The notes: a model not told the origin generated them from the sequence alone. 62,422 nucleotides of DNA from a virus (IMGVR_UViG_3300026167_000001:1-62422); one strand, 5' to 3'; shown: positions 1,753 through 29,043, counted from the stretch's first letter. A program made the numbers and translations.

Positions 1753-1826
1753 GGCGATCACGACAGCCGGATTAGCTGTTTTAACGGGAAATAATACCGT
1801 CGGAGGTTCAAGTCCTCATTTCGCCG
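1753..1826 (+). ncRNA. degenerate tRNA-like element lacking a D-arm
   Basis: ggcga/tcgcc acceptor-like stem; acagc-cggatta-gctgt arm; acgg/ccgt variable arm; gagg-ttcaagt-cctc T-arm. Confidence 0.5.
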
Positions 1827-1866
1827 CAAATTAACCAAACTAATGATTAACTAAAACTATAAAATT

Positions 1867-2586
1867 ATGAAAAACAACAGAATTGCCCTTTTTAGCGTAT
1901 ATACGCTACTTTTATTAATTATAGGTATATTTATCTACATTGCTATTAAAGTTGAAGAATCGAGCTATAATACTACTTTAACGCTAGAATTAGATAAGTT
2001 AACCAATGAAGATGAAATTATTCAAGGTTGTACTTATGTAGAATGTAACTCAAAAGATTATTTAATTAAGGTAAACAATAAAATATTATCTATGCCTATA
2101 AGTACTACTAAAGTAATTCATGGATTAGATAATAGATTAATATTGTATGGTAATAGTGATCGTTTATTTGAAATAATATCAAAAATTAACGATAATAACT
2201 TAAATTTAATAAGATTAAAAAATTTATCAGTAACTTTAATTTTAAATAATCATGATTGTCTACATTATATCGGTAAAGAAACCACTAAATACCAAAGAAA
2301 TAGAAGTACAGAAATTATACACAGATTTAAAAAAACTAGTGGTAGCTCACACACTACAAAATATTTTAAAACAACTAAAGAATACAGAGATATTTATACA
2401 AATAGGTTCCTTACGAAGTATGGATTTAATAAGTATAGATGGTTTTCACGTATTCAAAACAGAAGAAACGAATTTAAAAATTTTAAGAACGATTTACAAA
2501 CCGGAAGATTTTTTACAGATGTACAAAAGAAGATACCCAATAAGAAAAAGGGTGAAAAAGTACAAATTAGCTGCAACCAATCCTAA
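1867..2586 (+). CDS. hypothetical membrane-anchored protein; C-terminal 111 codons overlap the next ORF
   Basis: 239 aa; N-terminal TM helix; leader ttaaccaaac...aaaattATG. Confidence 0.55.
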   Translation: MKNNRIALFSVYTLLLLIIGIFIYIAIKVEESSYNTTLTLELDKLTNEDEIIQGCTYVECNSKDYLIKVNNKILSMPISTTKVIHGLDNRLILYGNSDRLFEIISKINDNNLNLIRLKNLSVTLILNNHDCLHYIGKETTKYQRNRSTEIIHRFKKTSGSSHTTKYFKTTKEYRDIYTNRFLTKYGFNKYRWFSRIQNRRNEFKNFKNDLQTGRFFTDVQKKIPNKKKGEKVQISCNQS

Positions 2587-2620
2587 AAATTTAAAAAGAG
2601 ATTATGACAAACGTTTGTAA
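2252..2620 (+). CDS. hypothetical protein (overlapping, +1 frame)
   Basis: 122 aa; composition typical of this genome's genes; aatcATG start context. Confidence 0.55.
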   Translation: MIVYIISVKKPLNTKEIEVQKLYTDLKKLVVAHTLQNILKQLKNTEIFIQIGSLRSMDLISIDGFHVFKTEETNLKILRTIYKPEDFLQMYKRRYPIRKRVKKYKLAATNPKNLKRDYDKRL

Positions 2621-2625
2621 AACTT

Positions 2626-2708
2626 AAAAGTCTACACCTAGGGTATCAAAATTAACGGACACGAACGGAGGAAAGTCTGAAATAAGGCTTGTTTAAGTGT
2701 AGACTTTT
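2626..2708 (+). ncRNA. candidate structured RNA closed by 12-bp stem
   Basis: aaaagtctacac (2626-2637) / gtgtagactttt (2697-2708); inner aagtct/aggctt hairpin; T-run follows, so it may also terminate transcription. Confidence 0.45.
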
Positions 2709-2725
2709 TTAAATTTTCTAAAATT

Positions 2726-3244
2726 ATGAAACCGGAGTATAAAAAAAATCAAATTGTAGTAGTTACAAATAGTTGCGGTGGCAATATACCAGGGACTATC
2801 ACTAAAATAATTTTAAATCCTCTTGAAGGTAAATTGCTAGATAACGGAGGATATGTTAATGCATACAGCAGTGTAGTATGTGAAGGTAATACCCGTGGCC
2901 AACTTGACTTCCATAGAAAATATTGTAACAAAAATATTTGGGAAGAAATATATATCAGACCAGCTACTACACATGAAAAAATAGCCAGAAGAAAAGGTAT
3001 ATATTTACCTAAAGCAAGAAAAACTTTCAGCCAATTAACTTTAGGGGATACTATAATGATACAGCATAATCAGCATTTTATAGAGCTAAAAATAGATGCT
3101 ATTCACAGATTAGGTGCAAAAACATTAGATGTTGGTGCTAAACCAGTCAACCTTAAAAAAGAATTTAAAAATACTGCTATTAAAGAATATTATTTTTTAA
3201 CAGAAGATCAATTAATAATGTCATCTGCACCACCAATAAAATAA
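2726..3244 (+). CDS. hypothetical protein
   Basis: 172 aa ORF on the local coding strand. Confidence 0.6.
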   Translation: MKPEYKKNQIVVVTNSCGGNIPGTITKIILNPLEGKLLDNGGYVNAYSSVVCEGNTRGQLDFHRKYCNKNIWEEIYIRPATTHEKIARRKGIYLPKARKTFSQLTLGDTIMIQHNQHFIELKIDAIHRLGAKTLDVGAKPVNLKKEFKNTAIKEYYFLTEDQLIMSSAPPIK

Positions 3245-3294
3245 ATTCAGAATCTAAAGAAAATGGGTATAATTATATAATTATGCCTATATTT

Positions 3295-3386
3295 GGTCCG
3301 TTCGTCTAACGGTTAGGACGCCAGAAGCTTAACAGCATAAAAACTTTGAAAAACTGGAAATGTAGGTTCGAATCCTGCACGGACTA
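3295..3386 (+). tRNA. tRNA-Glu/Gln-like gene with ~20-nt insertion in the anticodon loop
   Basis: ggtccgt/acggact acceptor; D-arm gtct-aacggtt-aggac; ccag/ctgg anticodon stem around a 29-nt loop; gtagg-ttcgaat-cctgc T-arm. Confidence 0.75.
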
Positions 3387-3406
3387 CTAATTAAAACTAA
3401 TTAATT

Positions 3407-3568
3407 ATGAATGAGGAAAATAAATCAATAATTAAAAGAAAAGCAGAAGAATATTTTGAAGAAAATATGTCTGGAGAACCACTATGTCAAGACTCTGTCA
3501 TATATGATATGGCGCAATTCACTAAAGAAATATTAGAAGAATTTGGAATTAACACTGAAAAATTATAA
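3407..3568 (+). CDS. small acidic hypothetical protein (53 aa, below ORF-track cutoff)
   Basis: MNEENKSIIKRK...GINTEKL*, fills the gap with a typical A-rich leader. Confidence 0.5.
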   Translation: MNEENKSIIKRKAEEYFEENMSGEPLCQDSVIYDMAQFTKEILEEFGINTEKL

Positions 3569-3584
3569 CCAAAAACTATAAATC

Positions 3585-4793
3585 ATGGAATCAAAAAAAT
3601 TAGAATTTGATGAAACTTTATGGGAAGAAATATTAAAAACATCTAAATTCTTTGAAGATAAGAATAAAAAATTAACAGCAGCTTATCTAAAAAGACAGTT
3701 CCCATTTTTATCAGAACGTCATGCAGCATGTTATATATTTGCACTTAATAATAAAGATGCTATTGTACCAGATTGGTCAGTTAAAAATAATATTTCTGCA
3801 ATAAAAACAGATTTATATACAGAAAGAAAACGTGTAAAAGGTTTATTACAAGAAATAAATTTAGCTGATCAAAGATTAAGCTATATGTTTGCCTTAAATC
3901 ACACAAAAGGTTTACAGGAATCTATTAAAGTAACAGCAGATCCTGAAATGAAGTCAGAAAGTACTGCAATCGCTTTATGTGGAGATGTACATGCTGAAGA
4001 AACAGTCAAAAAAGAAGTAATGGATGGACTAAATGAATACAATTTAGAAACATTCATAAAAAGATTTACAAGATATTTTTCAAGACTTCTTTATGTAATA
4101 CGAATGCAACGTAAAGCAGAACATGAAATTAATAATTTGGTATTAACCTTTTTAGGGGATTTAATAACAGGTTATATTCATGAAGAATTAATGGAAAATA
4201 ACTCCCTGTCACCAACAGAAGCTGCTAACATATTATTAGATTTAATGACATCTGGTATTAAATTGTTAGCTAATGAAGGCGCTTTTAAAAAAATAATTAT
4301 CGTAGGAATACGAGGTAATCATGGTAGAACAAGTCATAGGAAAAAATTCGCAACCGGCTACAAAAATTCTTATGAATGGTTAATGTATAAAAGGTTAGAG
4401 AAAACCTTTAAAGATCATTTAACTGGATATGAAAATATCGAGTTTGTAATTCCTAAATCAGAATTTGCCTACATAGATATATATGATAAAAAATGGGGAT
4501 TTTCTCATGGAGACCATTTTAATTATATGGGAGGAATTGGAGGAGTTATGGTACCGCTTATGCGTTGGTTATCAAAAATTAATGATGTAATTGATGCAGA
4601 TATGAGAGGTATAGGTCATTGGCATTCATATATATCTCTACCAAAATGCCTTGTAAACGGTTCTATGATTGGTTATGCGCCATATGCTTTAGGTAAAGCA
4701 TTTGCACCAGAAGAACCTAAGATGCAATTACAACTACAAGATAAGAAACTTGGATTTACTGTCAATATACCAATATTACTTGAAGACTTTTAA
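3585..4793 (+). CDS. calcineurin-like metallophosphoesterase with N-terminal helical/coiled-coil region
   Basis: motifs GDVH, GDLI, GNHG, HGDH and GHWH in canonical order. Confidence 0.85.
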   Translation: MESKKLEFDETLWEEILKTSKFFEDKNKKLTAAYLKRQFPFLSERHAACYIFALNNKDAIVPDWSVKNNISAIKTDLYTERKRVKGLLQEINLADQRLSYMFALNHTKGLQESIKVTADPEMKSESTAIALCGDVHAEETVKKEVMDGLNEYNLETFIKRFTRYFSRLLYVIRMQRKAEHEINNLVLTFLGDLITGYIHEELMENNSLSPTEAANILLDLMTSGIKLLANEGAFKKIIIVGIRGNHGRTSHRKKFATGYKNSYEWLMYKRLEKTFKDHLTGYENIEFVIPKSEFAYIDIYDKKWGFSHGDHFNYMGGIGGVMVPLMRWLSKINDVIDADMRGIGHWHSYISLPKCLVNGSMIGYAPYALGKAFAPEEPKMQLQLQDKKLGFTVNIPILLEDF

Positions 4794-4797
4794 AATT

Positions 4798-4858
4798 TAA
4801 TCACTCTGTTATTAATACATTGTTAGGGACGCGGGTTCGATTCCCGCCGCCTCCACTA
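4798..4858 (+). ncRNA. ssrA: acceptor (3') piece of circularly permuted tmRNA
   Basis: ggacgcgggttcgattcccgccgcctccA is the canonical tmRNA 3' end; taatcactc and gttattaata pair with gagtgatta and tattaataac in the coding piece. Confidence 0.85.
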
Positions 4859-4864
4859 TTATAC

Positions 4865-4942
4865 ACACTTATACGTCTCAGAAGAGCATAGGAGCGACGG
4901 GCTGATAAACCGTGGTCGTTGGTTCAAGTCCAACTAAGTGTG
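4865..4942 (+). tRNA. tRNA-Ile(GAT)-like gene nested in the tmRNA intervening segment
   Basis: acactta/taagtgt acceptor; acggg-ctGATaa-accgt anticodon arm; gttgg-ttcaagt-ccaac T-arm; atypical enlarged D-arm and G discriminator. Confidence 0.7.
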
Positions 4943-4959
4943 TATATTTTAAAATATCA

Positions 4960-4994
4960 GTCTAACAGGATTGATTAACGATCGCCTGTTAGGC
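4960..4994 (+). ncRNA. hairpin in tmRNA intervening segment
   Basis: gtctaacagg / cctgttaggc. Confidence 0.45.
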
Positions 4995-5001
4995 AAGCCG
5001 T

Positions 5002-5125
5002 ATAATATCCTAATACTCATAAAGAGCGCCTCTTCGAGCATAAGATGTAAATTGCCCCGTTATACTATACGGATCTATAGACAGTTTTAATATTGTCCAC
5101 TAGACTTACTTTATTAGGATATTAT
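5002..5125 (+). ncRNA. multibranched RNA closed by 14-bp stem, in tmRNA intervening segment
   Basis: ataatatcctaata / tattaggatattat; inner ccgt/acgg, gaca/tgtc, tcta/taga and ctc/gag stems. Confidence 0.5.
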
Positions 5126-5130
5126 CCCAT

Positions 5131-5301
5131 GGGGGCGACCTGGTTTTGACCGATAATAATATTAATAACCGATTAGTAGTGAGTGATTATTCCTTAAACG
5201 GAAACTTTAATACACCTGTTATTCAACTTCTAAGAGAAGTTGCGTAACACGTAATCAGTACGAAAAACTGTTAGCAGGGATGTAAAAAGTCCCTGCTTTT
5301 T
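5131..5301 (+). ncRNA. ssrA: coding (5') piece of permuted tmRNA; predicted tag (A)GNFNTPVIQLLREVA*
   Basis: gggggcgacctggttttgac is the canonical 5' end; gggggcg pairs with cgcctcc (4848-4854) giving G3.U70; resume context taaac-GGA at 5200, stop 5245-5247. Confidence 0.85.
5273..5301 (+). terminator. intrinsic terminator
   Basis: agcaggga / tccctgct followed by T-run. Confidence 0.75.
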
Positions 5302-5321
5302 AACTAAAATTACAATTAACC

Positions 5322-5987
5322 ATGAATGATAAAAAAGAACCTTACATTGTATTTAATTTAAGTGAGGGCTGTTCTATTGAATTGAATAAAGCAGATAGAA
5401 AATTATTAGTGCCTGGATTAACTTCCAGTGACTTAGTATATGGACAAGCTCTATTAAGTTTACTAAAAAGACTTAATTTAGAATATAGTAAAAAATATCT
5501 GCTAACTGATGATGAAGATGCAAAAGCTAAACATCATTGGTTAACAGTCCTAATAGGAAAAATTGAAAATAAAAGAAAAGGCAGTATATCAAATAAAATG
5601 CCTAAATTAGTAAGTGCAAAATCTATTTCTAAGTATTTTGATTCATTAATAAAGGAATTTAGAAGTGAATTAAAAGAAATTAAAGAAGAACCCATAAAAT
5701 CTAAAATAGCTAATGAATTAGCACATTTAGATAATATTGAGGCTCACATACTTAATACATATGGATTCAGATTGCACGACATCTCTAAAGTAGACGAACA
5801 AGATCACCCTTATGTCTTGAATATCGTTAAAAAGAAAGTAAGGGAAATAATAGGGAATTTTAAAAAAAGTGGTGGTGAGGACAAAGATCTTACTGTAAAA
5901 AATATAATTACATATTATGTAAGAACAATACCACCTGCAGTAAATATTAAAACTTTAACAGAAATAGTTAAAGAAGAACTTAAGTAA
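5322..5987 (+). CDS. hypothetical protein
   Basis: 221 aa; caattaaccATG leader. Confidence 0.65.
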   Translation: MNDKKEPYIVFNLSEGCSIELNKADRKLLVPGLTSSDLVYGQALLSLLKRLNLEYSKKYLLTDDEDAKAKHHWLTVLIGKIENKRKGSISNKMPKLVSAKSISKYFDSLIKEFRSELKEIKEEPIKSKIANELAHLDNIEAHILNTYGFRLHDISKVDEQDHPYVLNIVKKKVREIIGNFKKSGGEDKDLTVKNIITYYVRTIPPAVNIKTLTEIVKEELK

Positions 5988-6039
5988 GTAAGGAAAAGGT
6001 GTGCTAAAATCTAATTATAACCAATTAAAAACAATAACC

Positions 6040-6972
6040 ATGGAAGACCAAAAGATTTTAAATACACCGATGTTACTAACAGCTATTGTAGAGCTGCTGA
6101 ATCTACAACAAATGGAAATCTCTGAATTACGACATGAAGGTAAGGATGATGAAGCTATTACTATGAAACATCATAGAAAAGAATTGCTAAGTAAAGCAAT
6201 TGAATTAGCTTTAGAAACTGTATCTACTCATGGAGTTTGTATTCCTGTTGAACTTGATACCAAAAAACTTTCTGCAGATAAAGAAAGTTATTCAAGACAA
6301 ATAAAGGAACAATTATCAAGACTGGAAAGTAAACCAGCTAAGAAAAAATTCACTGCGGATAAAAAAACTAAAATTCCAGCAACAGAACGCTCTTATTCAA
6401 ATGTTTATGAACAAGATCAAGTAAAAAATAAAATGGCTACTTTTTCCATTAAGAAGAATTTACAACCTGAAGATTTACTAAAAGATGATGAGGAGTCTAC
6501 TCCATTGAGTAGATTAGTAAGGAAATCTATTTCCCATATGTTACAATTAGGAAAAAGATTAGAGGCTGTAAATTATTTAACTAATTACATATTCATTTAT
6601 ATAGGAATGACTTCAAAAGAGGCACATTCTTTAATAAATGAATTAAAAGAAAAGTTCAATATTTTTGAACTGACTAAATTGAAGCCAGTAAACAAAAAAA
6701 GAGCGGTACCAAAAGGAAAAATAGTTTTTGCCGAAGTAAATACTTTTAAAAGTAAAGAACCTACTACAAAATATGTAATTTGGCCTGAAGACTCTAAAAA
6801 TAATAGCATATTTGACTTTGTACAAGATGAATTTATTTGCATGTCAGATAATATTATTAAATTTAGAGAAGTTAGCCAATTAGAGGAAGAAAAAGTGAAA
6901 AAACAGAGAGAAGAGTTTGTAGATAAAGTAATTGAAAAAACTAAAAAAAGGTTAAAAAACAATAAGAAGTAA
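6040..6972 (+). CDS. hypothetical protein (start moved from GTG 6001 to ATG 6040)
   Basis: taaccaattaaaaacaataaccATG leader. Confidence 0.65.
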   Translation: MEDQKILNTPMLLTAIVELLNLQQMEISELRHEGKDDEAITMKHHRKELLSKAIELALETVSTHGVCIPVELDTKKLSADKESYSRQIKEQLSRLESKPAKKKFTADKKTKIPATERSYSNVYEQDQVKNKMATFSIKKNLQPEDLLKDDEESTPLSRLVRKSISHMLQLGKRLEAVNYLTNYIFIYIGMTSKEAHSLINELKEKFNIFELTKLKPVNKKRAVPKGKIVFAEVNTFKSKEPTTKYVIWPEDSKNNSIFDFVQDEFICMSDNIIKFREVSQLEEEKVKKQREEFVDKVIEKTKKRLKNNKK

Positions 6973-6991
6973 TTAATAATATTAACCTAAT

Positions 6992-7019
6992 AAAGGCAGG
7001 GATAATTCCTTGCCTTTTT
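6992..7019 (+). terminator. intrinsic terminator
   Basis: aaaggcaggga / tccttgccttt followed by T-run. Confidence 0.75.
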
Positions 7020-7034
7020 AATTAATTAAAAGTT

Positions 7035-7529
7035 ATGAATAAGTACATACAAATTAATCAACAAATTGAAAAGTTAATTAATAGTTCTAAAAAAATTAAC
7101 ATAATTAAAAGATTGTTGCAAGAATCTGATAATTTTCAGAATCGTGTAGCTTCCATCGTTGGAATAAATGTGGCAGAAATTGGTTTATCACATTTAAAAA
7201 ACTCTTTAATTAGAAAGAAAAATGAGTACATTCACCAAGTAAATTATACGGCTAATACACTATTAGCTTTATTTAATGTGCCAGTTAAAGAATTTAATTT
7301 AAGTAATTTTGTTCTTGGTACTAAAGATTTACTTAATGGATATGCTGAAATAGAAGATTCTAAAGGTAATTTATGGGTACTCTCTTTAAATACAGGAGAA
7401 TTTATTAAAGAAAGTATACCAGAAGATGAAGAGTCTAGAGAAACATTGCCAAGCTACATTAAAGAACCATGTTCTGTACTATCAGAAAATGACGAGTATT
7501 TAATATTAATTAAATCTAACAACCAATAA
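7035..7529 (+). CDS. hypothetical protein
   Basis: 164 aa ORF. Confidence 0.6.
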   Translation: MNKYIQINQQIEKLINSSKKINIIKRLLQESDNFQNRVASIVGINVAEIGLSHLKNSLIRKKNEYIHQVNYTANTLLALFNVPVKEFNLSNFVLGTKDLLNGYAEIEDSKGNLWVLSLNTGEFIKESIPEDEESRETLPSYIKEPCSVLSENDEYLILIKSNNQ

Positions 7530-7557
7530 AAAAATTAAACTCGTTATGGTTGACAGA

Positions 7558-7641
7558 GCCGACTTGATCTAGGAATATGCATTTATTCATTTAGTGTTAT
7601 ATGCCTTGAAAGATCGTAGGGATCGTATCCCTAAGTCGGTA
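7558..7641 (+). ncRNA. tRNA mimic: acceptor stem + T-arm, one long hairpin replacing D and anticodon arms
   Basis: gccgact/agtcggt + A; taggg-atcgtat-cccta T-like arm; gatct/agatc closes a long irregular hairpin. Confidence 0.55.
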
Positions 7642-7658
7642 CAATATTACCCCCAACA

Positions 7659-7721
7659 GAATATCTAACTAGTAGTTTAGGTCCAAACTAGACTATGACG
7701 TGCCAATTTTGTTAGATATTC
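7659..7721 (+). ncRNA. candidate structured RNA closed by 11-bp stem
   Basis: gaatatctaac / gttagatattc; inner tagt-agttt / aaact-acta. Confidence 0.45.
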
Positions 7722-7729
7722 ACACAATT

Positions 7730-7879
7730 AGATGCTTATATACTTTTCAATGTAAATGCGTCTGTAAGTCCCTCGTGTAAAGCACTTGTGCATGTACACA
7801 TTAAAGAGCAAACACAGACTATATTTTTACATAAAAGTTAACAAAATTTGTCAAAATTTTTAATAACTATTAAGCATCT
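7730..7879 (+). ncRNA. 150-nt rod-like RNA with large asymmetric bulge
   Basis: nested pairs agatgctta/taagcatct, actttt/aaaagt, atgtaaa/tttacat, gtctgt/acagac. Confidence 0.5.
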
Positions 7880-7971
7880 TAGGTCGTCAGGTTTTGTTTT
7901 CACAGTACTTCCTGATTACCGGTTAACAAAGACAAATTGAAAAAAAAGAACTGTCATTTATTTCTACGCTC

Positions 7972-8140
7972 GTCACGAGAGCTACTAAGACATTCGAAAG
8001 AGTGGAATCGTGATACCCTTAAATGTAATTAATAATACAATGAGGCAGTCAGAGGGTTGGTGCTTTTTATAAGCAGTTGTATTATAATATTACATTATCT
8101 AGTGAGTAATTATTGCATGTTGTATATGCGAAATTACTTA
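7972..8140 (+). ncRNA. run of hairpins including a GAAA tetraloop stem
   Basis: gtcacga/tcgtgat enclosing cattc-gaaa-gagtg; aatgtaat/attacatt plus ataatacaa/ttgtattat; tgagtaatt/aattactta. Confidence 0.4.
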
Positions 8141-8177
8141 TCAATTATTTTTCATTTCATTTTATCAAGTAAATTAC

Positions 8178-8274
8178 TAACAGTATTACACTGTAAATTA
8201 GTACATAATTGTAATGTCTGTCTGTGTACGACTACGAAGTAGCTACAATTATGGAGAAAAAAAAAGAACTGTTA
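8178..8274 (+). ncRNA. structured RNA with A9-gaactgt 3' flank
   Basis: taacagt/actgtta closure; 10-bp inner stem cataattgta/tacaattatg. Confidence 0.45.
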
Positions 8275-8321
8275 CTTAAAAAATGAGAACAGTATTAATT
8301 AAAAAAAGTTTAAGTATTAAT

Positions 8322-8441
8322 TACTGATTGGTACTACAATCAACTATGGACTATCTTCAAGTCAGACGTTTGTAGACATAAAGATATAATAGGCCATATT
8401 GATACATATGTAACATGCTATACATAATGTACCAATCAGTA
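8322..8441 (+). ncRNA. structured RNA closed by 13-bp stem
   Basis: tactgattggtac / gtaccaatcagta; inner atcaa/ttgat, tatgg/ccata, tatctt/aagata, tatgta/tacata. Confidence 0.5.
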
Positions 8442-8455
8442 TTTTAAATCAAGTC

Positions 8456-8788
8456 ATGATGAAATATAAAGTGAACAGCATTGTAATTAATAAATCGGGT
8501 ATAATCATAGATATAACCCAAAAAAGACTAATAGGTAAGAAATTTTGGATTTTTAATAAGTACAAAACCAAAAGATTTTTTGCTTTTCGAATGTTTAGAA
8601 ACATTTCGATAAACCCTAATATATCATATACAGATTGGTTAATGATAGATAAGAATTCTGCAAATAAGAATTCAAAAGTGATTAATCCAAAGTATGTGAT
8701 AAAAAACCCCAAACTAATAAAAGTATTAAATAAAGTTTTATTAAAAACCAAATCAATAAAAAAAGTATCATGGAAAAAGGATATATAA
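8456..8788 (+). CDS. basic hypothetical protein
   Basis: 110 aa, Lys-rich. Confidence 0.5.
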   Translation: MMKYKVNSIVINKSGIIIDITQKRLIGKKFWIFNKYKTKRFFAFRMFRNISINPNISYTDWLMIDKNSANKNSKVINPKYVIKNPKLIKVLNKVLLKTKSIKKVSWKKDI

Positions 8789-9168
8789 AACCAGCCAATT
8801 TAAGTATTGGACTAGGAAAAGTTTTTATAGTGGAAGAAGAATTAGTAGATGATAGAATTTCAAGTGAATTTATTCATCATTATGCAAAAGAACTTCCATT
8901 AGATAATGGAATCGTAAGAAATCCTAAAAATGGAAATTTTATTCTCAACCCTTCTGTAGAAAAAGAAGAGGAGGATAATAATTCTTATGAAATATCTTCG
9001 GATTTTACAGGATTATTTTTAGATGAAAGAGACTGTAAAATGACTGCTTCAGCTTTAAACGACAAAGAATATAAAAAAGCTGAAAAAATGTATGATGAAT
9101 TGCTTGCTAAAGCTGATACTTTACAAGATACCATCATGAAGTTTTATAAAGACCTTAAAAAAGTCTAA
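8770..9168 (+). CDS. hypothetical protein
   Basis: 132 aa, acidic. Confidence 0.65.
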   Translation: MEKGYIKPANLSIGLGKVFIVEEELVDDRISSEFIHHYAKELPLDNGIVRNPKNGNFILNPSVEKEEEDNNSYEISSDFTGLFLDERDCKMTASALNDKEYKKAEKMYDELLAKADTLQDTIMKFYKDLKKV

Positions 9169-9195
9169 GTATTAATTTTTAAATTAAGTAAGAAA

Positions 9196-9438: not shown

Positions 9439-9478
9439 TACTTAAGAATAGATATTAACCAATAAAAATAACATCGAA

Positions 9479-9913: not shown

Positions 9914-9914
9914 G

Positions 9915-12353: not shown

Positions 12354-12357
12354 AAAT

Positions 12358-17485: not shown

Positions 17486-18735
17486 ATGCTAATAACACCA
17501 TTAAAGTACAAACATATTTCAGAGCCTACTACAGAAATATTAGAGTATATTGATAGTAGGAGGAAAGGACAAATCAGATCGTTAAAAACTAAATGGAGAA
17601 AATTTAACGATCAATGTATGGGTGGTATTGAACCTAATACTATTTATACAGTAGCTGGTATATCCGGTAGTGGTGATAGAATATTTATCAATTACTTTTA
17701 GATAGGAAATATGATAAATATAAAGAATATTGCCGTATTTATGAGGAATCATAAATATAATTATTGGGCAAAAACGGTGAAGGCTGAGATGCTAATACCG
17801 TGGTAAATTTAAAGATAACGAAAGGCTTTAAATCACCGTAACGCATAGGAAATGAACAAATATAATTTTCCCACGAGTGTCCAACATCCAGAACGGATGA
17901 AAATATATGCTGAGCTTACATAAAATGAAATGTAAGAAGTATTAGATAAAAAACTAATACGGTAACAATACTGAAATCTAGCTTTGTTAATAGCTTAGAA
18001 ACAGATTTATTTGATTTAAATAATAGAGATGAATTTGTTGTACTCTCCTTTTCATTCGAAATGCTAAGTTCAAAACAAGTAGGTAGAAAATTATCTTACA
18101 AATTAGAAAAAACAACACAAGAATTATATAGTGGATATACTAATTATAAATTATCCAACGAAGATTATAAAAAAGTACAAGAAACAGCAAAAGGTATTGA
18201 AAAATATCCAATATATTATGTAGATATGCCAGGAACAGTTGACGAAATACGCCATACTATTCTGGAATTTAGTAAGGAATCTTTTGTTAAAGGTAAAAGG
18301 TTAATAATTATGTTAGATCATACATTATTAACTAAAGGTAAATCCGGAGAAGCTGAAAGAAGCATATTAGCAAACCTGCAATATATGTTTATGGAAATCA
18401 AAAAGTACGATAAAAATACCATAATTCAGCTGAGTCAAATGAATAGAGATATTGAAGCTAAGGAACGCATTGTTAATAATGCAATGCATTTTCCTATGAG
18501 GAGAGATATTTTTGGGGGTGATAGTATCTTCCAAGCTTCTGACTATTTAATAGTACTACATAGACCAGAAATGTTAGGAATAACAGAATATGGCATGAGT
18601 GCATTACCAACAAAAGATTTAGTCTACATGCATTTCCTAAAAGTAAGGGAAGGAGAACCTAAAATACTTGTATTCAAAAACAACCTTAGGTATAACAGAA
18701 TTGATGAGCATGAATTAAATTCTGTTAATAAATAA
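17486..18735 (+). CDS. dnaB: DnaB-like (SF4) replicative helicase; exons 17486-17674 and 17974-18735 (316 aa spliced)
   Basis: joining the exons restores Walker A GISGSG|KSS in frame; FSFEM, IMLDH and LSQMNR SF4 motifs. Confidence 0.9.
17675..17973 (+). mobile_element. group I self-splicing intron (299 nt, no homing endonuclease)
   Basis: exon ends in U, intron ends in G; P1 ggt|gata / tattgcc with U.G at the splice site; P3 ttgggca/tgtccaa; P7 gcata/tatgc; P8 and P9 hairpins. Confidence 0.9.
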
Positions 18736-20625: not shown

Positions 20626-20647
20626 ATATCCTCAATATATATATATC

Positions 20648-20672: not shown

Positions 20673-20688
20673 ATAATTTTATCAGTAT

Positions 20689-21675: not shown

Positions 21676-23710
21676 TATAAACTTCTACAAATCATTACAG
21701 TCGGATTATGAAAAATCTACAAAAATTATTTACTTAAATCCTTTAAATGATATTTTATTAAAAATAAAAAAATCTGAAAAAGGTAGTAGTAATAAAATAA
21801 TTAAGGCGTTACTTCCAAATGATCAATATTTAATAAAGAAATCTTATATAAATGATGATCACCCTAATTTTATAAATATAAAAAGAAAGAAAGATGGGTC
21901 TTTAATGATAAGTTATTTAACTATTAAAGATGTAAAATCTAAAATATTAAATAAATATATTAAAGATAAATTTAAATTATTATTAAAGGATGATTTTAAT
22001 ATCAGAAAAATACTCTCAAATAAAGAAGATTTATCTGTAAGAACTTGTATTTCATATAATAATGTACTTAGTAGTAAATTGTATACTTTTAGAAACTTTA
22101 GACCATCTGAAATTTCAGAAGATAGATATTTTAGTTATTTAAGTAGTATGTATATAAATATGTATGAAGAACTATCTAATATTATACATACCAATACTAA
22201 AATACTTTATAGTATTAATGAAATGCAAAAAAATAATTTTATCTTGTTAAAGATACTATACAATAGTATTATTAACGATACAAATTATATTGAAGATGTT
22301 AAAGAATATTATGGATTAAATTCTAAGGAAACTAAATATATAAATTCCAAACTTGATAGTAAATCATTTGAATTATTAAACTTACTAAAAAATATAAATT
22401 TATACAAAGATTCTTCTATTAGAAAACAAATTAAACCCGGCAAGTTCATTATAAAATTATTTAATAAAGGAATTTATAAACCTACAGAAATAGAAGATTT
22501 CGTAGAACTATTATCATCAGAATTTATTGATATTTCTAAAGATGATATAAAAATAGTTAGAGGTCCAGCTATACCTTATTATTATAATGAAATAAATTGT
22601 TCATACTATAAAAATTACAATAAAAAACGCAATAATGCGTCTTACTCAACACTGGATTTATTACAAGGTACTATAAATAATCAAGAAGATGGTGCGCAAG
22701 TAGAAAATAATTTAGGTGGGGGACAATTACATAATAGTTGTATGCGTCACAATAGTTGTACAGACGAACAATTAGATTTATATGTAGATAATCCAGATAC
22801 AATAGGGATGTTGATTTTATTTGATTATGATAAAAAAGTTGCAGGTAGATGTATAATTTGGACAGATGGTAAAACTAATATGTTTGATAGAATCTACGCT
22901 GATAACAATTCTACAAGACATAAAATGTATAAATGGTTATTAAACAATAACTACATTAACGTATCTAACAGTAATAAAAATTATAGCGGACTTAATAATA
23001 ATAACAAAACAACAGGAATTCCTATAAAAAATTGCATCTATGAAAAGTATCCATATTTAGATACATTTAAATATATAGATTTAAAAAATAAGAAATTATT
23101 AACTTATCATGAAATGGATAGTTATGAATCTGATAAATATTTATATTCAATAAGTAGTGGGGGACTTTCAGAGGTAACTAAATATTATACTACTAGTAAT
23201 TTGATGGCTGAAAAACTGAATACAACAGATTATATAAATAATACAATAAGAAATTATAATCAAAAAAATAAGAATATTAAAAATATATTAAAAACTGAAG
23301 AATCTTCAATATTTAAAATTAAATTACATAGATATGCAGAAAATTCTGAAGATGATATAATAGATTATATTCATATATATAGCTGGAATATGAATAATAC
23401 AGATAGAATGACTAAATCTTTAAAAAATAATGAAATACCTAATGGTATATCTGTTCTAAAATATTCTATAAGAAATGGTACTATTACAAGCAAAAAACAT
23501 AAAGTTGATAAAACGTACAAAAAAACTATTGAAAAATTAGGTATCATTAATGAACAAAATAATTTAAAATCTAATAAATTAAATAAAGAAGATGCCAATA
23601 AAGCTCTTGGAAATTTAATGGGTGAATATTACGATAAACACGTTAAATATAGTCCATCTTTTATAGATTTACCTAGGACATATATGAATTCTTTTGGCCA
23701 AATATTTTAA
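21665..23710 (+). CDS. large hypothetical protein with SCM / GR..W / DRIY / PY.DT motif domain
   Basis: 681 aa; motif-like core SCMRH, GRCIIW, FDRIYA, YPYLDTF within Asn/Lys-rich sequence. Confidence 0.65.
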   Translation: MINNINFYKSLQSDYEKSTKIIYLNPLNDILLKIKKSEKGSSNKIIKALLPNDQYLIKKSYINDDHPNFINIKRKKDGSLMISYLTIKDVKSKILNKYIKDKFKLLLKDDFNIRKILSNKEDLSVRTCISYNNVLSSKLYTFRNFRPSEISEDRYFSYLSSMYINMYEELSNIIHTNTKILYSINEMQKNNFILLKILYNSIINDTNYIEDVKEYYGLNSKETKYINSKLDSKSFELLNLLKNINLYKDSSIRKQIKPGKFIIKLFNKGIYKPTEIEDFVELLSSEFIDISKDDIKIVRGPAIPYYYNEINCSYYKNYNKKRNNASYSTLDLLQGTINNQEDGAQVENNLGGGQLHNSCMRHNSCTDEQLDLYVDNPDTIGMLILFDYDKKVAGRCIIWTDGKTNMFDRIYADNNSTRHKMYKWLLNNNYINVSNSNKNYSGLNNNNKTTGIPIKNCIYEKYPYLDTFKYIDLKNKKLLTYHEMDSYESDKYLYSISSGGLSEVTKYYTTSNLMAEKLNTTDYINNTIRNYNQKNKNIKNILKTEESSIFKIKLHRYAENSEDDIIDYIHIYSWNMNNTDRMTKSLKNNEIPNGISVLKYSIRNGTITSKKHKVDKTYKKTIEKLGIINEQNNLKSNKLNKEDANKALGNLMGEYYDKHVKYSPSFIDLPRTYMNSFGQIF

Positions 23711-23729
23711 AAATTTATGATTAAAAATA

Positions 23730-24995
23730 ATGTTTAATTTAGGACTATTAATAAAAACTTTATCTGTGCAATCGAAATCTAATGACGATTCTAACATGAT
23801 AAAGTTTGTGAAAAATTTCTTATCAAAAAATAAAATAAAATATAAGGAAGATACATATGGAAATATATATGTTACTAAAGGAAAAAGCAAATCTTATGCC
23901 TGTGTAGTAAGTCATATGGATACCGTACATCCTATGATAGATAAAGAATATTTTAAAATATTTAAGTTAAAGGATATACTTTATGCTATGAATGTAGAAC
24001 TGGGAGAACAAGTTGGTATTGGCGGAGATGATAAAGTGGGAATATATATAACTTTACAACTATTAAAAGATTTAGATAATATAAAAGCCGTATTTTACAG
24101 AAATGAGGAAATAGGTTGTTTAGGATCTAAACATTCTATACAACATGAAAAATCTTTTTATAACGATTGTAATTTTATTTTACAATGTGATAGAAAGTAT
24201 AAAAGTGATTTTATAACTAGATCTGGTGGAACTAAAATGTGTAGTACTGACTTTATAAATTCTGTAACTCCTTATATGGAGAAATATGGATTTAAAGAAG
24301 AGACGGGAATAAGTACAGATGTAGATAAATTAGTAAAAGGAGATGTCGGAATATCGTGTGTTAACATAAGTTCCGGGTACTATAGACCCCATACTGATAC
24401 TGAAATAGTTAAAATTTCAGAAGTACTAAACACATTTAATTTTGTAACTGATATAATAAATAATTTAGGTAATACTAAATTTGAATACAAATATGTACCA
24501 ACTCCCACATATAGTAATTTTGGAAATTCATTTACATATCCAATAAGTAGGAAAATATATTTTGATAAAATAGTACCAAAATACATATATCAAAATATTA
24601 AATTGTCTAAATATCCAGAATTTAATATTATAAATAGTAATAAAAATGAAATTGAAAATTCCTATGAATATTCTTTAAAGGATGAAGAACAACTAATACC
24701 AGTAAAAGGTATTAATTGTAACATTTGTAAAAGTAAAGATACAATGATATACTATCCTAAAGATGATATATTCATGTGTAAAAAATGTGGCAAAATATTA
24801 AACGATGATACGAATTTAAAAAAGAATGAACAAATAGATAATTTATATCACAAACTGAAAATAACTTCTAAAGGAGAAGATTTTGTTTTTAATAATTTAG
24901 CAGTTTGTTGGATTAAAAAAGATGATTCCGAATGGAGTTCTGTATTAGGCTCATATATGCCTTTAGATGAAGATAGATATAAATTAGCTTATTAA
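23730..24995 (+). CDS. M20/M28-clan zinc peptidase with C-terminal Zn ribbon
   Basis: SHMDTV, GGDDKVG, NEEIG, QCDR, YYRPHT; CNIC...CKKC. Confidence 0.85.
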   Translation: MFNLGLLIKTLSVQSKSNDDSNMIKFVKNFLSKNKIKYKEDTYGNIYVTKGKSKSYACVVSHMDTVHPMIDKEYFKIFKLKDILYAMNVELGEQVGIGGDDKVGIYITLQLLKDLDNIKAVFYRNEEIGCLGSKHSIQHEKSFYNDCNFILQCDRKYKSDFITRSGGTKMCSTDFINSVTPYMEKYGFKEETGISTDVDKLVKGDVGISCVNISSGYYRPHTDTEIVKISEVLNTFNFVTDIINNLGNTKFEYKYVPTPTYSNFGNSFTYPISRKIYFDKIVPKYIYQNIKLSKYPEFNIINSNKNEIENSYEYSLKDEEQLIPVKGINCNICKSKDTMIYYPKDDIFMCKKCGKILNDDTNLKKNEQIDNLYHKLKITSKGEDFVFNNLAVCWIKKDDSEWSSVLGSYMPLDEDRYKLAY

Positions 24996-24999
24996 AAAC

Positions 25000-25026
25000 A
25001 TACCTACTTAAGTTGTAGGTATTTTT
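25000..25026 (+). terminator. intrinsic terminator
   Basis: atacctac / gtaggtat followed by tttt. Confidence 0.65.
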
Positions 25027-25038
25027 ACTACTAAATTT

Positions 25039-25452
25039 ATGAGTAAAAAGAAATCTAAAAATAAAAAAGTAAAAAATGCTACTCCATTATTTTATGATGG
25101 TATAAAATTTAAAAGTAAATTAGAAGTATACTGTTATAATAAATTAAAAGAAAATAACATAGAAGCTCCATATGAAGAAAATACTTTTGTAATAATTGAT
25201 GCCTTCGTATATAATGATGAGAAAGTAAGAAAAATGACATACAAACCTGATTTTGTAGGTAAAGATTTTGTAATTGAATGTAAAGGAAAGGCTAATGATG
25301 CTTTTCCATTGCGTTGGAAAATTTTTAAACGCTATTTATTTGATAATAATTTAAATTACAAATTATACTTACCTAGAAATAAAAAGGATGTAGATGCAGT
25401 CATTGAAGATATAAAAAATCATTATAATGACAGAAAAACAGTATTACAGTGA
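25039..25452 (+). CDS. PD-(D/E)xK endonuclease (DUF1064 / T7 endonuclease I-like)
   Basis: GIKFKSKLE, YKPDF, IECKG. Confidence 0.8.
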   Translation: MSKKKSKNKKVKNATPLFYDGIKFKSKLEVYCYNKLKENNIEAPYEENTFVIIDAFVYNDEKVRKMTYKPDFVGKDFVIECKGKANDAFPLRWKIFKRYLFDNNLNYKLYLPRNKKDVDAVIEDIKNHYNDRKTVLQ

Positions 25453-26413
25453 AAAGAAAGTATCTAGTACCTCATTAAAATGGTTTGAAGATGAATCTCC
25501 TTGGTATTTTAAAAATATGCTAGATAAAGAAATAGTACAAGAAAAATTAAGTTGGTTCGATACTGGTAGACAAATACATATGTCTATTTTAGAACCAAAA
25601 GAATTTGACATTAACTATATTTATTTAGATTATAAAATACCAAAAAGTGAAAATCAAAAGAAATTCTGTGAAATTTATATAGATAATATAAATAAATATA
25701 CAGATAAAGAAAGGAGAATACTATCTTATGAACGATCTTATAACGCTGTTGGTAAATCCGAAGATAAGATAAATAAAGAATCTGAGAAACTATATAATAC
25801 CTTACAGAGTTATATAAAGTACTTAGAAAAATCGAAAGAGTATAAAGAGGTACTAACTAAATCAAAATGGAAATTAATACAAGATTTAAAAAAAGAAGCT
25901 TATAATCATAAGAAAGCAAGACAATTATTATTAGTGGAAAATGATTTAGCTAATGTAGAAGAGTATAATGAAATACCAATATTTTGGGAATATAAAACTA
26001 TTGAAGGAAAAACAGTTCCTTGTAAGTCTATGTTAGATAGATTAGTAATAGATCATGATACTAAAACTATTAAATTAATAGATCTAAAAACTACTAGTAA
26101 TTTAGGTACTTTTCATAAATCTGTAGATAAATACAAATACTACAGACAATTAGCTTTTTATTGGAAAGCTGTTGAATATGAATTTAAAGACTTGCAAGAT
26201 TATAAACGAGAAAATTATATAATAGCGCTACGAACTAAAGAATTACCAGAATGTAAAGTATTTGAAATATCAAATAATTTAATAGAATTAGGCAATGAAG
26301 AAATTGAAAACCTAATGAAAGATATTTCGTGGCATTTTGAAAACAACTTCTGGAAATATTCAAGAGAGTATTATGAAGGAACAGGAGTTGAAAAATTAAA
26401 AGAAGAAAATTAA
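25427..26413 (+). CDS. PD-(D/E)xK exonuclease (RecE / DUF3799-like)
   Basis: SSTSLK, G..IH..ILEP, E...CKSMLDRL, IDLKTT, YYRQLAFY. Confidence 0.8.
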   Translation: MTEKQYYSEKKVSSTSLKWFEDESPWYFKNMLDKEIVQEKLSWFDTGRQIHMSILEPKEFDINYIYLDYKIPKSENQKKFCEIYIDNINKYTDKERRILSYERSYNAVGKSEDKINKESEKLYNTLQSYIKYLEKSKEYKEVLTKSKWKLIQDLKKEAYNHKKARQLLLVENDLANVEEYNEIPIFWEYKTIEGKTVPCKSMLDRLVIDHDTKTIKLIDLKTTSNLGTFHKSVDKYKYYRQLAFYWKAVEYEFKDLQDYKRENYIIALRTKELPECKVFEISNNLIELGNEEIENLMKDISWHFENNFWKYSREYYEGTGVEKLKEEN

Positions 26414-26414
26414 T

Positions 26415-26972
26415 ATGCACGTAAATACATTCAAAAAGTTAATTGAGTTAGGTAATTCTCAAAATAATACATTAAGATTTTTAATGCCTTTAATTTACGA
26501 ACAAGGTATAAACAGTGATAACACTGTAACGGAACCTTTTATCGGCGCTTATATTAAAGATGCTAAAAATAAAGAATATGATGATAAATTATTATTAGTT
26601 TATGATAGTAAAAATGAACTTACAAATAAAGTTAGTGAGGTACTTACTAAATCTAAACATTATTTAGAATCTTATTCTAATGAAAATAATAAATTAAAGG
26701 TATTCGTATTTGATATACCTGAAAATAAACAACCAATATTAGAATTATTTAAAGAGGGTAAATACACACAATTCCCTTCATTATATAAAACTAATATAAT
26801 GAAATTTTGGAATTTGGAAGAAGGTGACGATATGTTTACATATATACTATATGGTGTAGACGAATCACAAATGAACAATAATGTAACAGAACTTACAGAA
26901 GAAGAACAAAAAGATACCATAGAAAACGAATTATGGCCTATTCCAGATATGTCAAAAGAAACATTAAAATAA
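26415..26972 (+). CDS. hypothetical protein
   Basis: 185 aa ORF. Confidence 0.7.
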   Translation: MHVNTFKKLIELGNSQNNTLRFLMPLIYEQGINSDNTVTEPFIGAYIKDAKNKEYDDKLLLVYDSKNELTNKVSEVLTKSKHYLESYSNENNKLKVFVFDIPENKQPILELFKEGKYTQFPSLYKTNIMKFWNLEEGDDMFTYILYGVDESQMNNNVTELTEEEQKDTIENELWPIPDMSKETLK

Positions 26973-27174
26973 TAAAAATAACTCTACAAAACACATTAAA
27001 TAAACAGACATGAATAGCTTATTAAGATTCACGATGTAAAGTACTAAGATATATACGCCTTAGTTGAAGTTTATAAAGAAAGCTGTTAGGTATACTGTAA
27101 GATGAAAAAGGGTTTATAGTAGTCTTACTTAATACGAAAGTGCAAACCAGAAACCCTGAGTAGAGTTATTTTTA
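26973..27174 (+). ncRNA. ~200-nt pseudoknotted candidate ncRNA closed by 15-bp stem
   Basis: taaaaataactctac/gtagagttattttta; taaac/gttta, actaag/cttagt, gtaaga/tcttac with loop agggttt pairing downstream aaaccct; tac-gaaa-gtg. Confidence 0.6.
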
Positions 27175-27182
27175 AAACATTA

Positions 27183-27286
27183 ATGCAAGACTATTCCTGA
27201 ATCCTCAGACAGTTGAGGTAGTTGTCGAAAGACAAAGCAACTGCTCCCACCAATGACAGGATGAAAAGGAGCATGATGTCTTGCAT
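27183..27286 (+). ncRNA. ~100-nt pseudoknotted candidate ncRNA closed by 9-bp stem
   Basis: atgcaagac/gtcttgcat; cctca/tgagg; ttgtc-gaaa-gacaa; tgctcc/ggagca whose loop cagga pairs upstream tcctg. Confidence 0.6.
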
Positions 27287-27333
27287 AAAATATTGGTTTG
27301 GTTAAGTTAAGTTGGTTAATTAGAAAGCCCACC

Positions 27334-27420
27334 GAGGGTAGGTAATATCATAAATTATAATATCCTTCCATAATAGTGTCAATTTGTTTTGTCCATTCAA
27401 ATTGATACTTTCCTACCCTC
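27334..27420 (+). ncRNA. structured element closed by 9-bp stem
   Basis: gagggtagg/cctaccctc; inner agtgtcaatttg/caaattgatact. Confidence 0.45.
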
Positions 27421-27450
27421 ACCTTTTTAACCTTATTAAAACAAAAATAA

Positions 27451-28167
27451 ATGAATTGGAGAGAACAATTAAATAGTACAAATACTGAAGAAATTAAAAG
27501 ATATGGCCAATTGAAAACTTGGTACCCTTATTTAAAGGATGAATTTACTAAACCTTATATGAGGCGTATATCTGCTAAAATAGCCAATTATAAGCAAAAT
27601 GAGGGACTTTTATGTCCAAGTAAGGGAAATATATTCAGAGCATTCAGAAAGTGCCCATATGAAGCCGTAAAGCTTGTTATTTTAGGTCAAGATCCATACC
27701 CTGGTAAAGGAATTGCAGATGGGTTAGTATTTAGTACTAAAAATAAAGAAACGCCTAAAAGTTTGAAAAATATATTTAAAGAATTAACTAATGATTTTCC
27801 AGACATAAGATTATTAAGTAATTCTTTGGATAATTGGGCAGAACAAGGTGCGCTACTTATTAATACTGTATTTACTACGCATGCCGGAATATCTAAAGCG
27901 CATATCAATTATGGATGGGAAATACTAACTAATAAAATATTAGAATTACTGAATAATCATAATAATTCTATAGTATTTATGCTGTGGGGAAATGATGCTA
28001 GAAAATATAAAAGTAAAATTACAAATAAAAAACATTTAATATTAGAAGCGGTACACCCCAGTCCTTTATCAGCAAATAGAGGATTTTTTGGATGCAACCA
28101 TTTTAAGAAAGCTTATAACTTTATTAAAGATAAATATAATTATGACTTTGATTTTTCAACAAAATAA
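27451..28167 (+). CDS. ung: uracil-DNA glycosylase, family 1
   Basis: GQDPY, WAEQGALLIN, LWG and HPSPLS motifs. Confidence 0.95.
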   Translation: MNWREQLNSTNTEEIKRYGQLKTWYPYLKDEFTKPYMRRISAKIANYKQNEGLLCPSKGNIFRAFRKCPYEAVKLVILGQDPYPGKGIADGLVFSTKNKETPKSLKNIFKELTNDFPDIRLLSNSLDNWAEQGALLINTVFTTHAGISKAHINYGWEILTNKILELLNNHNNSIVFMLWGNDARKYKSKITNKKHLILEAVHPSPLSANRGFFGCNHFKKAYNFIKDKYNYDFDFSTK

Positions 28168-28179
28168 CACATATTAACA

Positions 28180-28941
28180 ATGATTACAGAATCAAATACT
28201 TTATTAAATAAATATATGGATACTGTTTCAGTAAGTAAAAACGTAGCTTATAAATTTTTAGAAGATATTATAAGTCAAATGGTAGATCCATATGGTTTAT
28301 TGTATGAAGACGGTACTTTAGAGTTTATATATGAACCTAGAGGTACTTCAAAGATGTTTAAAAAAATATTATCAACTAATTTCAGCGAAATACTTTCTTT
28401 TTTAGGTATAAAATTTCCTAAACCAGATGAATATAGAATGATAAAAGTGAGAGATTTATATGACTGTGTAATAAACAGCAGGTCATTTAATCCTGATATT
28501 TATAATTTACAAATACTAAATACTGATATTCCATTTGAAAATACTTTGGAAAGAAGATTAAGATATTTCTTTTACAGTCGTACTAGAAAAATAAAAGAAA
28601 AAAATTCTGATAGAGATTATTTCTTATATCCTATAGATGATATATTAGTAAACGAAATAATTAATTATAATTTTCCAGATAAAAAAATAAAAAAATTCAT
28701 AAATGCACTAGAATTAAAATATTTTAATAATTCCTCACTTACTTATTTAGGGCCAAGTATTATAATGACTTGGATACCAGAATTAAGAGATAAAAGAGTA
28801 CAAGATATAAACAATCTTGCTAATGCTTTTAAAGAACATATTAATATAATCTACAAAAAAGATTATTCAGAATATGTAGAAGGTGTGGATGATAAAGAAC
28901 TTAGAAACGAATTTATACAATTTTATATCGACACTAAATAA
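28180..28941 (+). CDS. hypothetical protein
   Basis: 253 aa, last + strand gene. Confidence 0.65.
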   Translation: MITESNTLLNKYMDTVSVSKNVAYKFLEDIISQMVDPYGLLYEDGTLEFIYEPRGTSKMFKKILSTNFSEILSFLGIKFPKPDEYRMIKVRDLYDCVINSRSFNPDIYNLQILNTDIPFENTLERRLRYFFYSRTRKIKEKNSDRDYFLYPIDDILVNEIINYNFPDKKIKKFINALELKYFNNSSLTYLGPSIIMTWIPELRDKRVQDINNLANAFKEHINIIYKKDYSEYVEGVDDKELRNEFIQFYIDTK

Positions 28942-29002
28942 ATTAAAATATACGATTTCATGATTGACAGGGGAGTGGTTACCCCGCAAGTTTGGTTAAT
29001 TG

Positions 29003-29043
29003 AAAAAGAAAGGGCAGCCTTAATGACTGCCCTATCTTTATTT
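29003..29043. terminator. bidirectional terminator between the convergent modules
   Basis: agggcag/ctgccct hairpin with A-rich tract on the left and T-rich tract on the right. Confidence 0.75.

Follow-up and report, generated by a model that had tools for sequence, protein, structure and literature searches.

The viral record IMGVR_UViG_3300026167_000001, analysed here over its whole length of 62,422 bases (hereafter the window), represents part of the genome of a crAss-like phage, and we regard the RNA elements in the early and replication region of its plus strand as a mosaic of several independent kinds, a reading to which we assign a probability of about 0.6. The mosaic comprises a two-piece transfer-messenger RNA (tmRNA) gene with an optional tRNA-like insert, non-decoding tRNA-derived genes, an intron in the DnaB-family helicase gene, a member of an RNA family here called E1, terminators and one unexplained array of hairpins (Table 1). 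An initial annotation of this DNA had interpreted these elements as one coordinated rescue, decoy and regulatory system, which found no support: the elements differ in origin and distribution, and nhmmer detected relatives of the intron, of E1, of the tmRNA T arm and of the tRNA-like bodies but of no other element. The comparison with homologues that had been recommended there revealed covariation in the E1 family and in the helicase intron, and most other elements turned out to be without conservation in relatives.

The two-piece tmRNA gene is real and looks to be in working order, as the initial annotation had recognised. In the Rfam scan likewise proposed there, the permuted tmRNA family RF04321 matched 4808-5247(+) with 61.5 bits (gathering score 47, E 1.8e-09) and was the single family to reach its gathering score anywhere in the window. 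Two-strand folding joined the two pieces by a 7-bp acceptor stem (5131-5137 with 4848-4854), which includes the pair G5133·U4852 equivalent to G3·U70, and by a helix of 16 bp formed by 5154-5169 with 4808-4825. The acceptor piece reads ..CGCCUCCA-CUA at its 3' end, and CCA is not encoded. In the coding piece a predicted tag frame of 15 codons (5200-5247, GGA..UAA) translates into GNFNTPVIQLLREVA*, GGA being the probable resume codon; the end of this frame coincides with the tag end of the Rfam model, and behind it the terminator scan placed an intrinsic terminator at 5273-5297. The intervening segment holds tRNA-like #3 (4863-4943), a 9-bp hairpin recognised by eye near 4962-4993 and an element closed by a 14-bp stem (5002-5125), and the folds of the first and the last of these gave z-scores of -3.29 and -3.72, respectively. 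Judging from its family, the tmRNA would most likely be excised from a longer transcript by host tRNA-processing enzymes and then charged with alanine, and, together with SmpB of the host, it would release or tag ribosomes that stall during infection.

No permuted tmRNA reached the gathering score in 37 other loci, which comprised the surroundings of the exonuclease gene in relatives and two loci obtained with a T-arm pattern, L018 and L021; the only two tmRNA matches came from this latter pair and are of the standard type, clipped by the locus ends. The T-arm 31-mer matched standard tmRNAs only, and the tmRNA region had no blastn match among GenBank phages. In the part of the literature searched, a tmRNA of Crassvirales is nowhere reported. 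A pattern of the 5' end of the coding piece matched once, in L074, and was set aside as an unrelated, G+C-rich and short tmRNA-like gene. That gene, L074:6591-6725(+), lies on a G+C-rich viral contig, is about 130 nt long and extends from GGGGGCGAUUUGG.. to ..CGCCUCCACCA; tRNA-like fragments follow it, and ARAGORN calls nothing there.

The E1 element, which heads the gap 26973-27450, appears to belong to a covarying, widespread and apparently unnamed family of phage RNAs. By blastn and nhmmer, L002 and L006, both distant crAss-like loci, were found to contain relatives with compensatory closing stems and non-homologous flanking open reading frames (ORFs). A degenerate pattern of the E1 3' core matched at least 96 stretches in IMG/VR, a handful of chance matches being expected by our own rough estimate, and the contigs range from 4 to 271 kb among the 80 matches listed. 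The closing stem could be placed in 93 elements, which leaves 90 after the copies of the window, L002 and L006 are set aside; the elements of the family are mostly 113-130 nt long. A tRNA lies no more than 300 nt away in 45 of the 90, always on the same strand (45/45) and in many cases at a distance of 1-7 nt. An example of such a copy in a tRNA array is L225:3893-4017(-), among the IMG/VR loci L225-L320. In locus L263 an E1-family element, two tRNAs and the 3' domain of a GOLLD RNA (257 bits) stand in a row on one strand (L263:758-1169(-), L263:1961-2081(-)).

The proposed E1 structure, four nested helices and a pseudoknot, was tested on 33 distinct sequences. In 89.1% of the cells the bases paired, compared with 74.2% in shuffles, and none of 500 shuffles reached the observed value. 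Both sides changed in 22 of 32 pairs, and slid controls attained 55% at most, a comparison in which the structure is favoured since it was derived from the same 33 sequences. Within the pseudoknot one pair occurs as AU 16, GC 15 and GU 2 times and is never unpaired, and six pairs are invariant. Model R1, built from an alignment without the window, recovered 27065-27173 of the window with 44.4 bits (E 1.2e-07), the next match in the window having an E-value of 0.86, and the element found there carries the closing stem, the motifs GCUGU, GAAAAAGGGUUUAUAGUA and CAGAAACCCUG and the pseudoknot of the family. At gathering score, Rfam matched only tRNAs and one GOLLD in 20 E1-bearing loci, all at other coordinates. 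Identity with RNase P RNA, suggested by a possible likeness to the P4 region, was rejected, as RF00010 and RF02357 gave no match at E<=10 in any of five records, one of them the window. A family member compared by blastn with 50,697 GenBank phage records gave no match, and the literature, in the part searched, yielded no description of an E1-like motif, an earlier description elsewhere being possible.

A third and separate element interrupts the helicase gene. The ORF 17486-17701 runs to ..AGISGSG and then into a stop, and in the frame upstream of the ORF 18061-18735 the sequence KSSFVNSL.. starts at 17974; 299 nt thus separate ..GISGSG from KSSF.. within the Walker A motif. The helicase parts are contiguous in all ten IMG/VR relatives (10 of 11 relatives overall), and cr118_1 carries an insert of 337 nt at the identical site, where two helicase coding sequences are annotated in GenBank. 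Both inserts are homologous (nhmmer E 8e-27) and have 62 predicted pairs in common, 14 of them with compensatory changes. The border features of group I introns are present, i.e. the gene of the relatives is continuous, the last base of the 5' exon is T (U in the RNA) and that of the intron is G; the insert is a putative self-splicing, group I-like intron without an ORF. Rfam group I introns were also seen in the loci of two relatives, L008:9919-10149(+) and L031:5378-5690(+), and a type II hammerhead ribozyme (56.7 bits, cut-off 37) in that of a crAss-like relative, L013:188-257(-).

Four cloverleaf or three-way folds had been listed as tRNA or tRNA-like genes. As folds they stand, and they are tRNA-derived genes unable to decode normally; as tRNA genes they do not, as default ARAGORN called 0 genes in the window and none of the four combined at least 29 bits to the tRNA family RF00005 with an anticodon loop of 7 nt. 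Three of them have preserved both the acceptor and the T arm. For tRNA-like #1 no Rfam tRNA match appeared at E<=10, even in a lax search over 3 kb, and ARAGORN called it only at the 80% threshold; its anticodon loop, AAAUAAU, is without U33, and a strain of 94% identity lacks one nucleotide of the D loop, at 1771. The T loop GGUUCAAGUCC of tRNA-like #1 and its anticodon stem ACGGG/ACCGU, which contains a G·A mismatch, recur in tRNA-like #3, and these two elements look like paralogues. tRNA-like #3, with an aberrant D arm, scored 23 bits as an Rfam tRNA over 4885-4934; its best bacterial match was an initiator-like tRNA-Met (84% identity over 37 nt), and its weak phage matches were to tRNA-Asn. 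It is a dispensable insert of the tmRNA gene, because strains X5 and X6 (both about 98-99% identical to the window) have 8 letters in place of 4857-4954, which spans it; their contigs retain only 25-27 letters to the left of this joint since the assemblies break at the T arm.

In tRNA-like #2, 29 nt replace the anticodon loop of a body whose 24-mer is shared by at least 120 bacterial contigs, ARAGORN calling a tRNA-Glu there in 77 of the first 80 loci (L087-L166). Only with lax filters did Rfam tRNA reach 30.0 bits over 3295-3386 (cut-off 29), and with introns allowed (-i) ARAGORN called this element alone of the four, as tRNA-Phe(gaa) with a 20-nt intron. By reading, removal of 3325-3344 (20 nt) leaves a perfect 5-bp stem CCAGU/ACUGG and the loop UUGAAAA with anticodon GAA; we know of no splicing mechanism in bacteria or phages for an insert of this kind. 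In L022, the closest exonuclease relative (83% identity), unrelated DNA occupies the expected site. A pattern of tRNA-like #2 with variable loop gave 0 matches, a count which may be unreliable, as may all zero counts from gapped patterns in IMG/VR, because the first gapped E1 pattern also gave 0 matches though L002 should fit. Strain X5 has 231 extra letters at 3396-3422, directly after tRNA-like #2, and 383 extra letters at 5287-5301, directly after the tmRNA terminator; in the 94%-identical strain, X11, 202 bases within 2717-2920, at the start of the ORF 2726-3244, are replaced by 201 different letters. The tRNA-likes most likely persist as mimics of acceptor and T arms that would guide cleavage of long transcripts by RNase P and RNase Z, plain decay being the alternative.

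Phage tRNAs can counter anticodon nucleases, and the initial annotation had seen tmRNA, tRNA-likes and structured RNAs as one system acting on host translation by ribosome rescue, by decoys for such nucleases and by small-RNA regulation. We consider this unlikely. It is true that every element is on the strand of the genes and within the early and replication region, that one tRNA-like is placed physically within the tmRNA gene, that the E1 family is tied to tRNA arrays, that the tRNA-likes retain acceptor and T arms with altered anticodon arms, as a decoy might, and that the cold-shock protein reported for the early region is indeed encoded close by. However, the parts do not travel together across relatives and strains; the arm pattern shared by tRNA-likes #1 and #3 had 0 other matches in IMG/VR, another gapped-pattern count that may be unreliable; the protein scans of the window revealed no gene for tRNA repair, a ligase or SmpB; and a decoy for an anticodon nuclease should retain the anticodon loop that is attacked, unlike tRNA-likes #1 and #2. 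The metallophosphoesterase was also correctly reported; judged from its sequence it is a DNA-side nuclease of the replication block, and metallophosphatase (MPP) is counted among the conserved replication genes of crAss-like phages in excerpts of Yutin (2021; PMC7886860), so that its presence is uninformative about RNA. Antisense copies of a leader motif, the remaining part of the proposal, were not borne out, as exact k-mer counts revealed no intergenic-specific repeat and the guessed motif AAACTAATTAA, with up to one mismatch, occurred at chance level (16 matches, 16.5 expected). With a real tmRNA, tRNA-derived elements and an E1 family residing in tRNA arrays, a link of part of the RNA set to the translation apparatus is therefore plausible, and as a common thread the closing stems may allow host tRNA-processing enzymes to release stable RNAs.

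About a dozen structured elements closed by terminal stems had been described as well, and these are largely real, with z-scores from -1.5 to -4.2 for single elements, values that are biased because the boundaries were chosen by eye; one of them proved to be the helicase intron and others are terminator-like. The non-coding stretch 7530-8455 is made up of such elements, and its domains include tRNA-like #4 (7558-7640), 7659-7720, 7729-7882 and 8321-8443, the last with a closing stem of 13 bp. Against shuffles it folds with z -6.55 on the plus and -4.40 on the minus strand, and two coding controls of the same length gave -0.58 and -2.69. A search for hidden genes under altered codes (TAG=Q or table 4) found none: no ORF exceeded 61 aa with table 11, the plus strand contained none above 81 aa under TAG=Q, where the longest ORF has 81 aa, or under table 4, where only a minus-strand frame of 135 aa extends into the stretch. 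No homologues of its flanks were found by which they could be compared as exons of one gene. In 757 kb and 804 kb of phage loci nhmmer detected no homologues of this stretch, of the elements in 27186-27421, where z-scores of short segments are mostly weak (about 0 to -4.1), or of the element 2628-2706. The hairpin 29012-29032 is likely a two-way terminator, and the stretch 7530-8455 itself may consist of processed stable RNAs or of repeats at the DNA level.

That everything except tmRNA and intron is functionless, a mixture of transcription stops, defunct tRNA genes and what is left of lost genes, is improbable too. Such decay would agree with the failure of the tRNA-likes in tRNA models, with the dispensability of tRNA-like #3, with the lack of relatives for most elements, with 11 terminator-like sites in the window where 4.7 are expected and with an accessory region that is highly variable among relatives; but E1 is a conserved and covarying RNA, the stretch 7530-8455 folds far beyond its coding controls and has stayed about 98.5-99% identical in X5 and X6, as have the neighbouring genes, and three tRNA-likes have intact acceptor and T arms. 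The retention of 926 nt of non-coding hairpins and of three broken tRNAs in a compact lytic phage argues against plain decay.

Least probable of all is a role at the DNA level, with the stem-closed elements as small inverted-repeat mobile elements or as replication or packaging signals. In its favour, each closing stem is a perfect inverted repeat (9-15 bp), whole modules vary between strains at 4857-4954, 3396-3422 and 5287-5301, the minus strand also folds better than shuffles and the contexts of E1 are non-homologous. Against it, G·U pairs are present in the E1 family, as is a strand-specific placement relative to the neighbouring tRNAs, the plus strand of 7530-8455 folds better than the minus strand, no transposase was seen nearby in the protein scans of the window, and cumulative GC skew rises steadily over 1-28000 without a turning point at 8 kb.

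Several observations weigh against the mosaic of independent elements which we prefer. Default ARAGORN did not call the tmRNA, and no SmpB gene was found in the six frames of the window, which is weak evidence because the record is 58% complete (CheckV). The helicase insert has no match to the group I family RF00028 in Rfam at E<=10 and is therefore termed group I-like. E1 of the window lies between an ORF of unknown function and the UDG gene and not beside a tRNA, so the array context seen elsewhere may not apply here, and the hairpins and broken tRNAs that are retained leave room for an unseen function. Missing conservation is itself weak evidence, since the relatives fetched are distant (exonuclease identity 31-56%) and not syntenic with the window. 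In the RNA library X16, contigs at depth 2-7 fall mostly over coding parts and reveal no discrete small RNAs, and a 126x peak at the tmRNA T arm stems from other organisms; the library covers parts of the window only, and nothing is concluded from the absence of cover over the tmRNA body and 7325-8500.

Table 1. Coordinates of RNA elements and of genes discussed with them in the window.
Feature	Position	Strand	Basis and details
Terminator-like hairpin, 10-bp stem AAGGGAGAGA/TCTCTCCCTT, then T-rich tail	1440-1481	+	z -4.26, segment 1382-1481
tRNA-like #1, cloverleaf	1752-1826	+	fold z -1.85; 5-6 bp acceptor stem, 5-bp D stem
Stem-closed element, 10-bp closing stem AAGTCTACAC/GTGTAGACTT	2628-2706	+	fold z -2.1
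tRNA-like #2, Bacteroidota-type tRNA-Glu body (acceptor, D, T arms)	3295-3387	+	Rfam tRNA, ARAGORN -i, 24-mer
Metallophosphoesterase, SbcD/Mre11-like exonuclease	3585-4793	+	PHROG 284 'exonuclease' E 5.4e-41; Pfam Metallophos 20.8 bits, cut-off 21.5
tmRNA acceptor piece: 5' strand of inter-piece helix, T arm, 3' acceptor strand, discriminator A	4808-4858	+	Rfam alignment, two-strand fold
tmRNA intervening segment, 272 nt	4859-5130	+	sequence and folds
tRNA-like #3, inside tmRNA intervening segment	4863-4943	+	12-bp closing stem, loop CUGAUAA
tmRNA coding piece: acceptor 5' strand GGGGGCG, helix partner, predicted tag frame, terminator	5131-5297	+	Rfam, two-strand fold, terminator scan
Non-coding stretch, 926 nt, about 10 stem-closed domains	7530-8455	+	folding, ORF scans
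tRNA-like #4, three-way junction without T loop	7558-7640	+	fold; no Rfam tRNA match
Cold-shock domain protein, 80 aa	9196-9438	+	Pfam CSD 35.5 bits, cut-off 27, E 9.2e-09
ORF-less intron (putative), 299 nt, DnaB-family helicase gene	17675-17973	+	translations, sequence, relatives
E1, pseudoknotted phage RNA family member	26973-27174	+	model R1; 15-bp closing stem; motifs GCUGU, GAAAAAGGGUUUAUAGUA, CAGAAACCCUG
Stem-closed element	27186-27287	+	by eye, CAAGAC...GTCTTG
Stem-closed element	27323-27421	+	by eye, GAGGGTAGG...CCTACCCTC
G+C-rich hairpin between convergent gene blocks	29012-29032	.	z -3.4 (+), -3.5 (-), segment 28982-29081

The gene content of the window is divided into two blocks, with plus-strand genes up to 28941 and minus-strand genes from 29061 on. 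The tail protein 60139-61863(-) is 36% identical to its counterpart in the crAss-like phage cr55_1, and the helicase shares 55-59% identity with Crassvirales helicases. By PHROG and Pfam scans of the window proteins the plus-strand block is a replication module, which encodes the SbcD-like metallophosphoesterase, a family A DNA polymerase (PolA), the DnaB-type helicase, an AAA_24 ATPase, a DnaG-type primase, UDG, DUF1064, a PD-(D/E)XK nuclease, an M28/M42-like peptidase, an SLT lysozyme-like protein and the cold-shock domain protein. For the ORF 6001-6972 only two relatives were found, both unnamed. The late block contains a single ORF of 4282 aa (33722-46570(-)) and then ORFs of 1549, 1433, 958 and 681 aa; that of 1549 aa (29061-33710), the sole large late-block ORF scanned, had no PHROGs match.

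Of the elements described, the E1 family outweighs the tmRNA in importance, as it joins GOLLD and ROOL among the phage RNAs of tRNA islands and is small enough for easy biochemistry. A bolder and tentative proposal would make E1 an undescribed, widespread class of phage RNA with a pseudoknotted fold of about 120 nt and a near-invariant core, which might occupy the place of a tRNA in arrays, be released by tRNA-processing enzymes and act on tRNAs or the translation machinery as a ribozyme or mimic; its companions in this phage would be a two-piece tmRNA and tRNA bodies with altered anticodons, within a phage habit of filling tRNA-shaped slots with non-tRNA cargo. The tmRNA of the window has an intervening segment able to accept a tRNA-like module, which bears on the processing of two-piece tmRNAs, and the tRNA calls that failed and the helicase intron illustrate at which points standard annotation of crAss-like genomes leaves blanks or breaks genes apart.

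Among known systems, E1 may be likened to the stable RNAs species 1 and 2 of phage T4, which are small, lie in the tRNA cluster, have no known function and are released by tRNA-processing enzymes. GOLLD and ROOL, according to excerpts of Kretsch (2025; PMC12286853), are phage RNAs near tRNA islands, as is the E1 family, on the strand of the tRNAs; E1 is shorter with about 120 nt compared with 600-800 nt, and Rfam found GOLLD in one of the 20 E1-bearing loci, elsewhere in the locus, and ROOL in none. Compared with phage tRNAs and tRNA pseudogenes (RF00005), tRNA-like #2 agrees with Bacteroidota tRNA-Glu in acceptor, D and T arms, whereas no element of the window combines a normal anticodon loop of 7 nt with normal arms and default tools reject all of them. 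The helicase intron resembles the group I introns in core genes of crAss-like phages, as described in the portions of Yutin (2021; PMC7886860) consulted, in residing in a core replication gene, in its exact single site and sporadic distribution and in the 5' exon U and intron-final G, its RNA being conserved and covarying; unlike these, it is without an endonuclease ORF and without a match to RF00028. Of 133 distinct tmRNA forms known from phages, 53 are in two pieces, chiefly from marine phages, in excerpts of Buchholz (2022; PMC9004378), and with those of the OM43 phage Melnitz and the pelagimyophages described there the tmRNA of the window shares the order of acceptor piece, intervening segment and coding piece, G3·U70, the T arm, the hydrophobic end ..VA of the predicted tag and the position in the early region. 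It differs from them in belonging to a crAss-like phage, in being missed by ARAGORN, and in its long intervening segment of 272 nt with the optional tRNA-like insert and no riboswitch attached.

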